Positions 4,176 to 37,351 of a stretch of 64,000 nucleotides of DNA are shown piece after piece. Source of the stretch: Octopus vulgaris (lineage: Eukaryota); assembly GCA_951406725.2 (NCBI GenBank), contig OX597825.1, forward strand, positions 43,152,001 to 43,216,000. The letters run 5' to 3'. The notes under the pieces are model-generated. The model searched no databases and was not told where the DNA came from. It worked only from the letters and a program-made list of their open reading frames with translations. The stretch's first letter is position 1; each line of letters starts with the position of its first letter. Made by a program: the position numbers and the translations under genes.

Positions 4176-4451
4176 GTTGGCATCCTTTCTGTCTCGGGAG
4201 ACAATGGAGTTGCGCATAAAGTAGTCTAGTCCGGCTTTTATATTTCATGTCCTGATTTCATGTGTCGGCCTTGACACATTTCCTGTGTCCTTATAAATTT
4301 ACGAAGGGGAGACAAATACCCCCAATGGGTAAATATATAAGGACACAGGAAATGTATCAAGGCCGACAGGAAGCGTCGATGCTTCCTAGGGCTAAACAGC
4401 GGTGATGCAATTCCCTTACAGGACTGTCACGTTAGGTTGACAGTAGACAAC

Positions 4452-4523: not shown

Positions 4524-4772
4524 GTATATATACATGTATGTATGTATGTATGTATCTATGTATGTATGTATGTATTGGTGGACAATCTTGTTGTAAACGA
4601 AGAGGACAGTACCGCAATCTCGCGTAACAATATGCAGAGACGAATTGTTTAGTGTGATCAAATATTTGTGGTGCACATTTCCTCAGTCGCTTCATCGGAT
4701 AGTCATTGCCTGGAAGGTGTACGGGATGTCACAAGTCAAGCGTCAATGCGATCACAGGAAATGAAATGAAAT

Positions 4773-5115
4773 ACAGTTCTATATTTAAGAGATGAGGAAT
4801 TATGTACATTATTTGCATTATTTACATTTGACAGATATTTGTCCTCATCTTGGCGTAGTGGTTAATGCGCGGGCTACTAACTCCAAAATTCCGAGTTCGA
4901 TTCCAGGCAGTGAACAATAATAATAATAATAATAATGATAATAATAATAAGAATAACAACAACTATAATAATAATTACACCGAAAAATACCCTAGGAAAG
5001 AGAACCCAGGTTCGAAATTTCTCCAAGACACCTGATGAAGGCTGGAGGGTGTATCAGCCGAAACGTTGTGTTAACAACAAACAAGATGAGGACAAATATC
5101 CATCAAATATAAATT
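4773..5115 (+). mobile_element. Composite SINE-like element: inverted copy of own 3' tail + tRNA-derived head + (AAT)n + hammerhead; 12-bp TSD
   Basis: TSD ATGAAATGAAAT at 4761-4772 and 5116-5127; A box TGGCGTAGTGG at 4851; B box GTTCGATTCC at about 4895; 4821-4852 is an inverted copy of 5082-5113 (29/32 identical). Confidence 0.8.
5027..5072 (+). ncRNA. Minimal type-I hammerhead ribozyme with intact core
   Basis: GACAC CUGAUGA A GGCUG gaggguguau CAGCC GAAA CG UU / GUGUU: stem I GACAC:GUGUU, stem II 5 bp, palindromic stem III AACGUU. Confidence 0.85.
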
Positions 5116-5127
5116 ATGAAATGAAAT

Positions 5128-5185
5128 GTTTTGCACAAGAACACACAGCCAGTATCTGGAATCGAGCAACATCCTAACCACTAGT
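5128..5185 (-). mobile_element. tRNA-derived SINE head fragment
   Basis: Minus strand agtggttaggatgttgctcgattccagatactggctgtgtgttcttgtgcaaaac shows A/B-box relics plus the start of a core domain. Confidence 0.5.
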
Positions 5186-5210
5186 GTACGACCTGAATAT
5201 CTATGTTTGC

Positions 5211-6115: not shown

Positions 6116-7471
6116 ATCTTTCATTTTGGATCTCTTTTTAAGAGAGATTTGGATCTCTTTTTAAGAGGGTTCATAATACTGAGATATTCTGTTGAGGAAA
6201 GTGAATGAGGAGCAGAACCAGAAATAGACGTTGTATACATTGGTACGCATAGATAGTGCATTATTCACATATATCATTTGCTCTATGTGACAAATGTGTA
6301 TCAGTGAGTATTGCAAGATCACGTATGAAAATCCATTATGGAGGAGACAAATATCCTGCGATAATTTTTAAACCTAGGAACTCATTCTATAATTTTCACC
6401 TGCATAAATACAATGGTTGTAGACTAATGAATTTTATTTATTTGTTTGTTTATTTATTTATTTATTCATTAGAAAGTTGATCGATTCAGTTACAAATCGT
6501 GCTTCGGAGCAAATAATGTGTCTGAGAACAGTAGTAGATCATTACATTGATTCGAACAGCCATTTCACATTTTGAATAATTTCCGAGGAGACTGAAAATA
6601 ACAGGTTAAGAAAATAATATTTTGAGGATTTTAATATCAACATTCTATATTGGAATTAGGGATTGAATCGAATTACTTCAACAATGATTATCATTTTCAC
6701 AATACGTGCATAATCTGCAATAAGTTATTCGTACATATATTATTTTCCTACTTTGCGCATAGTAAACAATTAAATGGTAAGAATTGCATTTTTACTTACA
6801 AGCTTGGCTAGACGATGTAAAATTATTTAAAAATATCAATAAACATAAAATTAACTCAGCTTCATTTTCCTTTTCTTCATATCATTGATATACTTTGTTT
6901 CGCTCCCTGAGTTTGAAGGAGGTGAAATATTGGCAAACTCTTTAGTTGTAGTATTTAGTTTCATTAAGCACCAGTTAACGTCGTCTAGATATGTATCCTT
7001 GAATAACTTTTATGAATCAAAGACTCTAAAAGACTCTAAATAAATGTTCATTTGAGATGCTGACTAAAATTTGTTATCCATGAAACAAAGCGACAGTAAT
7101 TATACAAAATTGAACTCAACAAATCAATTGACAACACATCTATTATCATTTTTCGTTCCCCAACTCCCCCTACACAATTTCTTTATTCTTCACCGTCGTT
7201 GTTCGTCTACTTCTCTTCCATATACTGTTGCCATGACATTCACTATTACTATTACTAAGCATTTGTAGCTACAGCCCAAATGCTCATTTCTGTTTCTCAG
7301 GTAGATTTTCTATATCGCTTTGTAAGTATGACTTTGTTTCCCACAAGAAATTTACCTCTTTTCCTCTACCTATCACTCTCTCTTGTTTCTCTCTCTCCCT
7401 CTCCATCTCTCTCTCAAAATATATGTATTCATAGACACACATGCATACAGAGAAACATGTATGTCCATATG

Positions 7472-7504
<33 letters not shown>

Positions 7505-7810
7505 CGTGTGTGTGTGTGCGTATGTATATAATTATTTACATTTATATATCTAAACATATGCAAGCACGCTTACACCAGCGTACAAACTTGCTTCTTTCCA
7601 TGAGATTTAAGAACTATAGTTAGTTCGTGATGTTATTTTTGTAAACAAACTTTCATGTGCTTTTACTGCGATGAATTTTGTTAAGCAGCATCGATTTTTA
7701 CAATTCTGTAAATAATAATAGAAGTATTTTAAAAGCTTAAAGCTTATAAGCGATCATCGTGTAATGACTAAAGAAAATAGTCTAATAATGGGGCATATAA
7801 GCCCTCGACA

Positions 7811-7870
7811 GAAAAAAAAAGTAGGTTTTCCCGCTCGCGTGAGATTCGAACTCACATCTCGACGCTGATT
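7811..7870 (-). other. tRNA-like 3' half (T-arm plus acceptor-like strand) followed by an oligo-T tract; probably SINE-derived, not a complete tRNA
   Basis: Minus strand GTGAG-TTCGAAT-CTCAC-GCGAGCGG...TTTTTTTTT; no D-arm or 5' half is visible. Confidence 0.6.
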
Positions 7871-7871
7871 T

Positions 7872-8461
7872 ATTCTATGTACACACATTCTTGTTCTTTT
7901 ACTGCATGCCAAATATCTTTTAGTTTATGTATTTTCGGTAAGCTGTAAAAGGTGCTGGGTTTTGGCGCGAAATTGGTGATATAGTTTCTTCTGTTATCGG
8001 TGAGTTGTGGTTTGAAACCAGGTTGTTGATCTTCGTTATGATGTGGTGGTCTATATTTGAAGGTATTTCACACAAGAAAGTTGTGTCATTCAGTTGGACC
8101 TCAACCAAATCCTTATAGTGTTCTGCACCCATAATGACAATTGCACTCCTTTTATCAGCTTGTTCAATTATTACTGTTTGATCGTTTTCTATACGGTTAA
8201 GTGCAGACATTTATTGCGTCTAAGGAGAAATTTTGAAAGGATATCAATATATTGGTCAACATAGTTATTTCTTCCTTTAGGTGGGTTGAAATTTGATTTA
8301 TTCTTTACTAGGGATTCATAAATCGCATTACTTATATTAGTTAAGAAGTCTATAAGTCGTAACTTACGACAGAATATTTGGATATCCTCCTTTAGTTCTT
8401 GGTTGTTGACTGTTGATGTAGGTGTAAACTTCAGTCGTAAGTTACGATTTTCTACATCCAA
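7872..8461 (-). pseudogene. Inverted 5' segment of a Penelope-like ORF (N-terminal region up to RT motif 1)
   Basis: LKFTPT..EDIQIFCRKLRL..KSNFNPPKGRN; ALNRIENDQTVIIEQADKRSAIVIM; a frameshifted FYSLPKIHK. Confidence 0.88.
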
Positions 8462-9985
8462 AAGACTTAAAACCTATTATAGTTGATCCAGTATTCCCTA
8501 CCCACCGTCTAAACAATTTTATTGACATTGTCTTGAAACCACAAATTACCTACAAACCCATTTTCATCCAGGATGACATCGAGTTCCTGTCCCATCTTCT
8601 CAAAACAACTGAAACAAATTCATATCTACTTAGTTTTGATGTGGTAAGCCTTTACACCAATCTTCCACGTGATTCAGGAATGAAGGCGATTAAATACTAG
8701 GTAGGAAAACATAGAGAAAGGATCTCAACGGATTTACAGTGCTATTTATATTAGACAATCAGACTTATTCTGCAAAACAAGACATTCTTCTTTAATGGAA
8801 ATAATTACATCCAAATTAAAGGCACGGCGATGGAAACGCGGTTTGCTCCCGTTTACGTGAATTCTGTAATGGGATACTTAGAAGAACAACTCTACCAAGC
8901 ACTGAATTTAGAAATTATATTGAAAAGGCATGGAAGAAATACCTTTACGATTCTTTCATAATCTGAACAGAGTCTCTAAATACTCTAGAAGAGGTCAATA
9001 TCCTCCGGCATAACCTATGCCCATCTCTCCAATTTACAAAGGAGATGAATAGTACCAAATTACAAATCCTAGGTATAATGGTAATTAAAAATGACACTAC
9101 CAGATATATACTACAAACACACGGGCACACATCAATACCTGAATTTTAAGTCGTGCCATCCACCACATACAAAACGCAATATCCCATACTGCCTAACCAG
9201 AAGAATTTTTGCTGTTGTAGAAGATGCGGATATCAGGAACAAACGCCAAACAGAACTAAGAGAACTTTTGATCAAACAAAAATACCCGTCTCTACATATA
9301 GAAAATGGCATGCAGCGGGCTATAAAAATACCCATACAACAACTTAGAAAACCCAAAGAAGTGGAAAACAAGAAAAAGTCATACCCTTTATACCATTTAT
9401 AGACAACCCATGTCACTAGAATATCTTCAGCATTGCCAAAGCAAACCTACCAAGCATTGCTCAAAGTAATGAATTGAAAGATATAATCAGAGATCGAGCT
9501 ATGGTTCTTAGTAAAAAAAACACAACCTAAAAACGTGAAAAAATTATTAATAAAGGCAAAGTTTGACCTTAGCAAGAAAAGCCAACCATTCACTGTATCT
9601 AAATGCAATGATAACCGATGTGGCACATGCCAATTCATGAACACAAAAACCGGAAGTATTTTCACAAACGCAAATATGAACTATAGAAGTAGAAATTTAA
9701 TTTACAGCATCAAATACCAGAATTGTGAAGAACTATATGTGGGTCAGACTTGTAATGCACGGGTCAGACTTGTAATGTACAATCAGAACATTCACGTGTG
9801 CACCGACAGCAAATTAGCGACCCAGATGTCCACCAGATACATCTGAGTGACCGTCTAACAACATGAGGCCGGAAAATATTTATATTTCCATTCTACAAAC
9901 TACACATTCCGAGTGAAATTGAGAGAAAAATCAGAGAAAAGAACTTTATCAATAAATTTCAACCGAAACTAAATAAACAATACTA
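8462..9985 (+). pseudogene. Penelope-like RT plus GIY-YIG endonuclease, disrupted
   Basis: KPII..P..PTHRL; SFDVVSLYTNLP; QIKGTAMETRFAP; DIYYKHTGTHQYLNFKSCHPPHTKRNIPY; CNDNRCGTC; NLIYSIKYQNCEELYVGQT. Confidence 0.93.
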
Positions 9986-36774: not shown

Positions 36775-37351
36775 AATCCAAACATGAAACCACCAAGAGA
36801 AAACACAACAACGCGAGGACGTGGAACAAGTATAGTGTTATTGGATGCTCAGAAAAGGAAGGAAAGAAGGAGGATTTAACGTTTCGAGCAGATCTCTTCG
36901 TCAGAAACATAGGAAAAGGAAAGCTCCAATGAAGAGAAGACGGAGGGAAAAAATCGCCAACGGTACACACGCGGTCAATTAAACACATAAGGAATCCACT
37001 CGTGGGGGTCAACACGCTAGAAAGAACAGCTAGATTCTATAACCACAAAAATTAGGGATACAATTCGACAGGAACGAAAGGAAAAATAGAAATATTTTAC
37101 CACTAAGTTTCCTGGACCAATTGGTTTCCGATTTTAGTTTAGCAAGCAAATAACATTTACTCAGGAGGTAAAATCGTCATCAACAGGTACACCTTGGGGT
37201 AAATATATAAACACGAGGTGATCAAACTATATGCCGCCCGTTTATACATTCTAACTTTTTTCAAAATCTACTGCACAGACGTAACCCTTCGGTTATAGAA
37301 TCTAGCTTTTCTTTCTAGCATGTTGAAACCAACGAGTGGATTCCTTATGTG
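36775..37351. mobile_element. Composite PLE-type remnant: hammerhead-bearing fragment plus inverted arms (about 36983-37043 / 37291-37351)
   Basis: cacataaggaatccactcgt..ctagattctataacc mirrored by ggttatagaatctag..acgagtggattccttatgtg; direct repeat 36558-36612 / 37237-37291. Confidence 0.6.
36874..36908 (-). ncRNA. Minimal type-I hammerhead ribozyme motif
   Basis: Minus strand GUUU CUGACGA A GAG aucug CUC GAAA CG UU / AAAU. Confidence 0.75.

Follow-up and report, generated by a model that had tools for sequence, protein, structure and literature searches.

We analyzed a 343-bp unit that occurs once, at positions 4773–5115, in a 64,000-nucleotide stretch of Octopus vulgaris DNA (hereafter, the window). 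As the preliminary description had it, the unit lies between identical 12-mers (4761–4772 and 5116–5127, both plus strand); the last 3 nt of the left 12-mer also match the long end of the element, and because the outer 3 nt of each copy match the element as well, the TSD proper measures 9–12 nt. The unit opens with an inverted arm (4770–4852, minus strand), which corresponds to family tail positions 106 to approximately 179 and bears the long end. This arm had been taken for a copy of the unit's own 3′ tail, but only 33 nt are common to both: the forward copy stops near family tail positions 141–147, and the arm holds tail sequence absent from it. At a 2-nt overlap (4851–4852), the arm joins a tRNA-derived head (4851–4913, plus strand; family positions +8 to +71) whose first 7 nt are missing in this copy. 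A pattern scan placed box A at 4851–4861 and box B at 4895–4903 on the plus strand, in agreement with the head as previously noted, and an (AAT/AAC)n spacer occupies 4914–4976 (plus strand), also as noted. The spacer varies in length, and later insertions often interrupt it in other copies.

The pLTR tail (4977–5115, plus strand) consists of a short 5′ UTR and the first ~39 codons of the ORF of a Penelope-like element (PLE), and terminates at the short end. Positions 4998–5114 encode the PLE N-terminal peptide (frame from 4998), with the start codon mutated in the window copy. The complete hammerhead claimed for 5027–5072 was recovered by motif scan as a minimal type-I hammerhead on the plus strand, with a 5-bp stem I, the core CTGATGA (5032–5038), a stem II of 5–6 bp, GAAA (5060–5063), a palindromic stem III, and a predicted cut after 5067. 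A second B box had been suggested nearby; the 9-mer GGTTCGAAA (5009–5017, plus strand) is non-canonical, without the final C of the B-box pattern, and lies within ORF codons, so that it is probably incidental and was rejected. ARAGORN and Rfam (gathering and E-value thresholds) called neither a tRNA nor a hammerhead in the unit. The right 12-mer doubles as the end of a fragment of a different abundant repeat (at least 11 alignments), which forms the right flank (5116–5190); the far end of that repeat resembles a degenerate tRNA head in minus-strand orientation, and the left flank does not continue it.

Family size and the autonomous element

The tail matched 40 of 40 scored candidates at 94–100%. 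Exact matches numbered 10,836 for a probe just 3′ of the hammerhead, 5,415 for the hammerhead, 3,475 for the head end, 832 for a probe 16–38 nt upstream of the head, and 90 for a probe directly past the tail, with none for the reversed control of each probe. Calibration of the counts against copies picked independently, of which 82/195, 41/186, 16/100, and 23/43 matched the first four probes exactly, gave approximately 25,000, 25,000, 22,000, and 1,600 arms, respectively, which are rough lower bounds. No tail arm was found in 203 kb of bystander loci, where approximately two were expected.

At locus L008, a PLE endonuclease frame terminated just ahead of a head. Among 30 loci picked by the end of the endonuclease ORF (query locus included), head sequence directly followed the ORF stop in 29 (26 detected by BLAST, and three partly deleted heads in the printed sequence), and a tail match lay downstream in 28. 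RT sequence lay upstream of this ORF end, with RVT_1 matches in two of three pieces; Pfam did not name the endonuclease piece, which we take from its motif to be GIY-YIG. In the majority consensus, the PLE is a single frame of ~835 codons, save for one ambiguous A-run. In full-length copies, the tail extends into the ORF with the ATG upstream of the hammerhead; therefore, the ribozyme lies within coding sequence, and the hammerhead "tail" of the family corresponds to codons 1 to ~50 of the PLE ORF. An alignment of the tail frame with a related 847-aa PLE protein covered 104 aa at the N-terminus of the latter (46% identity, E = 7e-22). A second relative, an 836-aa Anolis protein (44%), aligned with family copies as far as residue 805. 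Anolis, lamprey, and echinoderm proteins were among the named relatives (120 listed of 372), and viral contigs contained no relative of the element.

The autonomous element thus runs from the ORF stop through ~30 nt, the tRNA head, (AAT)n, and the ATG to the hammerhead in the first codons, the RT, and the endonuclease, and a pLTR with the minimal type-I hammerhead flanks the ORF on both sides. The window unit belongs to the Penelope/Poseidon clade of PLEs as the pLTR of an autonomous Poseidon-type element. A partner PLE sharing the 3′ end had been anticipated; the partner that we found carries the entire unit, head included. The proposed mobilization by PLE RT/GIY-YIG is supported.

Linkage of head and tail

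In 76 of 96 heads, a tail lay within 700 nt. The head and hammerhead therefore travel together, as had been supposed, and a chance SINE insertion into a PLE tail was rejected. The other 20 heads all enter (AAT)n and then other sequence, with the tail resuming further on in two and borne by the inverted arm in eight; heads without tails thus reflect breaks in the spacer. Downstream of the spacer at loci L102, L109, L115, L117, L119, L211, and L229 lie sense-strand pieces of a different RT/endonuclease ORF, which probably resemble Dong/R4 elements, a group that targets TAA repeats. The spacer looks like an insertion hotspot.

When 75 solo units were compared with 44 ORF-linked units (leaving out 47 units with other 5′ ends), 0 of 249 positions were diagnostic (smallest P = 0.006; Bonferroni threshold, 0.0002). 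Tandem arrangements were likewise not borne out: head-to-tail arrays were found in 0 of 30 core-picked loci. Isolated direct pairs do occur in the family (e.g., L263). The unit shares with SINEs a small-RNA-derived 5′ head with A and B boxes; it does not form a lineage distinct from its partner and sharing only the 3′ part, since the whole unit sits in the autonomous element, nor does it show the tandem head-to-tail hammerhead units of non-LTR retrozymes in those 30 loci. It acts in a SINE-like manner as a solo pLTR, yet does not qualify for either class, and the separate non-autonomous SINE or retrozyme of the preliminary description is not supported.

Insertion signature

The 3′ ends of 345 tail matches were bimodal, at ~140–151 and 173–177. 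Among 68 inverted insertions, 63 had one long and one short end, five had two short ends, and none had two long ends; TSDs of at least 9 nt were present in 34 of the 68, compared with 0.7% of shuffled flank pairs. Family TSDs measure 9–13 bp and accompany inverted arms, and the window copy, with its long inverted arm and short forward end, fits this pattern. The Penelope-style inverted insertion proposed earlier is therefore well founded and recurrent, and we infer that two cDNAs were primed from staggered nicks. Both the optional tail and the inverted copies have been recorded for PLEs before, according to the available portion of a previous report (PMC8557442). At L215, L199, and L203, the arms are of very unequal length: one stops at the head or close to it, and the other stops deep within the ORF. 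Such a difference is expected when the two cDNAs begin at different pLTR sites or on different RNAs.

Hammerhead

The hammerhead scan gave no match in 0.89 Mb of shuffled control sequence. A minimal hammerhead fold with different stems was present in 8 of 80 related PLE loci, and this recurrence argues that the motif, a candidate ribozyme, is real. Within the family, core positions were conserved at 91–99%, like their neighbors, and the CpG of stem III had decayed to 0.66–0.74; stem covariation is uninformative here because the copies decay from one master; the covariation proposed as support was seen only across related PLEs. The active fold was less stable than the lowest-energy fold in both the monomer (−12.2 vs. 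−13.6 kcal/mol) and the dimer (−22.7 vs. −31.6 kcal/mol), and the minimum-energy folds of the unit contained neither a hammerhead nor a cloverleaf. Tail matches starting around the ribozyme cut (positions 91–100) numbered 12 of 345, with 1–11 in neighboring 5-nt bins. Copy ends thus show no accumulation at the cut, and the mobile unit is apparently not delimited by self-cleavage. Another minimal type-I hammerhead motif lies elsewhere in the window, at ~36875–36910 (36904 and downstream, minus strand). Its palindromic stem III is identical to that of the unit, whereas its other stems differ and are shorter; it is probably the pLTR of another PLE family.

Head and 5′ ends of copies

The best match of the 76-nt head among 17 distinct host tRNA sequences (not all isotypes) was tRNA-Arg (z = 7.0–7.5). 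Box A begins at head position 8, as in tRNA, and the consensus retains both boxes intact. In the 60 of 80 related PLE loci scanned with ARAGORN, no tRNA was called, and a B-box pattern scan of related loci found none positioned like the octopus head (by inspection). In metagenome contigs L349 and L352, a canonical B box stands at position 2295, with a match to a related PLE RT ~700 nt further downstream.

We determined the 5′ ends of 96 head copies, namely the first distinct head matches on one contig, including paired arms and two duplicated loci. Sixty ended at −10 to +10, 26 within the head, and nine beyond −100; a single copy ended at −18, and the interval from −21 to −100 contained no ends. 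Four short 5′ ends were deletions with ORF upstream, three of them in the −10 to +10 bin, which leaves 57 of 96. The stop rate per nucleotide was 0.081 at the head and 0.0034 in the ORF (~24-fold), and ~80% of arms at risk stopped inside 20 nt at the head start. In 30 copies picked upstream of the head, the ends spread smoothly from −40 to −780. Six of 45 ORF-start arms (44 loci; 90 matches overall) reached the head, and five of these began at −3 to +5; head-started molecules therefore also read into the ORF. Two ORF-start copies, L242 and L197, are ordinary partial tandems that continue upstream past the head, which counts against a head start. A palindrome or hairpin spans the head start (−6 to +6) and could itself generate ends: by hand count, 18 of the 57 head-start ends are head-to-head joints at the palindrome, and 39 join other sequence.

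Since copies, including ORF-start arms, begin at the head, the RNA most likely starts at the captured tRNA(Arg)-like A/B-box promoter. The tRNA-derived piece is likely the element's own RNA polymerase III (Pol III) start signal, given that most copies begin exactly there. The 5′ ends and the lack of T4 runs give indirect support to the Pol III transcription assumed previously, and a Pol III start at the head is probable.

T4 runs and RNA evidence

The 2,623-nt sense consensus contained no T4 run, whereas 4.6 were expected by base shuffle (P = 0.009) and 2.6 by synonymous shuffle of a 723-codon frame (P = 0.045); individual family copies averaged 0.33 runs per kb (95 segments). As controls, 30 of 30 other RT ORFs of the same genome (four clusters) had 2–13 T4 runs each, in most cases close to expectation or in excess of it. 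A usable frame was obtained for 75 of 80 related PLE loci, and among ORFs of at least 400 aa, 0 of 29 had no T4 run and 4 of 29 had one, so T4 poverty is not unique to this family. Pol III may transcribe the entire element, for which the T4 absence is only suggestive given these controls.

When three raw RNA-seq runs were searched with a junction copy, whose divergent head lowered coverage there, 6,642–9,585 reads matched in each, in both orientations about equally, and 77–81% of reads ran on into unlike sequence. There was no pile-up of starts or ends, including at the ribozyme cut, in these three standard runs, a library type that may miss unit-length linear or circular RNAs. The pattern fits passive transcription inside host RNAs and has no bearing on Pol III. 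A word search found at least half of the unit's words in runs under six organism labels, one of which was covered by the read search, and no RNA was listed as carrying the unit.

Proposed mechanism and alternatives

We consider it fairly probable that the 343-bp unit is a dead solo pLTR copy of an autonomous Poseidon-type PLE with a tRNA-derived A/B-box head, likely made from RNA begun at the head under Pol III. The RNA would start at head position −7 to +1. The PLE protein would bind within the ORF start and initiate reverse transcription from one of two alternative internal sites, as shown for the anole element PAc; the copy ends ~30 nt apart would correspond to these sites. Any head-started RNA could serve as template, whether that of a full element from its 5′-proximal start site or that of a solo unit, and internal priming on it would generate units that run from head to tail, at SINE-like copy numbers. 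At the target, staggered nicks in the two strands would each prime one cDNA, which would account for the inverted arm, the pairing of a long with a short end, and the TSD of 9–13 bp. The hammerhead would be inherited PLE cargo and the template likely uncleaved RNA, in line with the lack of enrichment of starts near the cut and with PAc. A stronger version, which we regard as rather unlikely, is that the autonomous PLE swapped its Pol II promoter for a captured tRNA gene and is transcribed by Pol III end to end, all T4 runs having been purged from the 2.6-kb sense strand, so that one RNA would be the mRNA, the full-length template, and, by internal priming, the source of the SINE-like swarm.

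Alternatively, a tRNA head fused to a PLE tail could represent a SINE or retrozyme lineage in its own right, propagated by separate master copies and by RNA that the ribozyme processes. This appears unlikely: although ~85% of head arms have no ORF (13 of 96 carry it), solo units combine both boxes with TSDs (≥7 nt in 6 of 11) and lack T4 runs, and Sm-alpha is a precedent for Pol III with a hammerhead (PMC6765202, available portion), the head belongs to the autonomous element, no diagnostic position was found among 249 and no head-to-tail array in 30 loci, and starts by the cut are no more than 12 of 345. The head start might also be genuine and arise from a Pol II promoter in the pLTR, with the A/B boxes left over from an ancient insertion of a SINE or tRNA. 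Capped Pol II RNA is the usual route to translating an ORF of ~835 codons. Furthermore, PLE pLTRs carry promoters for the downstream copy, as stated in the available portion of PMC6765202. However, the ends center on tRNA +1, 7 nt ahead of box A, which is the expected start for type-2 Pol III; both boxes have stayed intact in the consensus; and the T4-free sense strand contrasts with the other RT ORFs of the genome, making this origin quite unlikely. Plain 5′ truncation of a long PLE RNA, with the head-start hairpin acting only as a stop or fold-back hotspot and not as a promoter, would explain the ends joined head-to-head at the palindrome and the short fold-backs of several solo units; it is very doubtful in view of the 39 ends that join other sequence, the sharp stop of most at-risk arms within 20 nt, and the comparable hammerhead stem II, which gives no such peak.

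Comparison with known systems

Ohshima and Okada (1994) reportedly described octopus tRNA-derived SINEs, presumably of the same lineage. The unit may already have been named as a SINE in the 1994 octopus set or in Repbase or Dfam. In the available portions of the literature searched, including PMC13282606 with its supplement, PMC4209133, PMC8967140, and PMC8557442, no tRNA-derived head in a PLE pLTR is described; a prior database name is quite possible. The tRNA-derived head in the pLTR, where most copies begin, is the unusual feature of the family.

According to the portion of the PAc report available (Frangieh 2024, PMC11167929), the hammerhead contains the start of the PAc ORF, reverse transcription begins from two internal sites, and uncleaved RNA is the template. 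PAc resembles the octopus family in its single RT and C-terminal endonuclease ORF, the overlap of the hammerhead with the ORF start, the two internal RT start sites that yield an optional 30–40 bp tail with both strands extended, the ATT-rich target, and the inverted 5′ copies. However, neither a tRNA-derived head nor Pol III boxes are described for PAc in that portion, whereas most octopus copies are solo units starting at the head. The SINE-like Sm-alpha and Sj-alpha of schistosomes also combine a tRNA-related Pol III promoter with a type-I hammerhead in tens of thousands of copies. However, the hammerhead of Sm-alpha is canonical, Sm-alpha requires tandem repeats and release by the ribozyme, and the available parts of PMC6765202 and PMC2770079 do not present it as an autonomous element's terminal repeat. 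The octopus family instead has a minimal hammerhead that lies in coding sequence, and its copies occur singly or as inverted pairs. Non-LTR retrozymes, as presented in portions of PMC7229834 and bioRxiv 10.64898/2026.07.22.740005, are likewise short, non-coding, hammerhead-bearing derivatives of PLE pLTRs, but they are defined by tandem arrays and circular RNA, neither of which was seen for the octopus family in 30 core-picked loci and three standard RNA-seq runs, and no tRNA head is mentioned in those portions. TRIMp3 elements (Cassandra, Helenus, and Ajax) carry a small-RNA-derived Pol III promoter in the terminal repeat but are non-autonomous LTR elements whose autonomous partners are argued to need Pol II (PMC10886601, available portion), whereas in octopus the autonomous PLE itself bears the head.

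The element shows a route to a SINE-like family without a separate parasite: because reverse transcription is primed within the beginning of the PLE's own ORF, a pLTR that acquires a Pol III promoter would automatically yield promoter-bearing short copies. This offers a model for the possible origin of Sm-alpha-type Pol III and hammerhead repeats, and raises the testable question of whether Pol III can express an autonomous retrotransposon. In addition, thousands of natural insertions back two-strand, two-site priming by PLEs, and annotation pipelines would likely divide the family into "SINE" and "Penelope". Upstream of the unit, the window also contains a 32-nt inverted repeat (4264–4295 and 4336–4367) with 31 of 32 positions complementary and a 40-nt loop (by eye), possibly a small MITE-like remnant.
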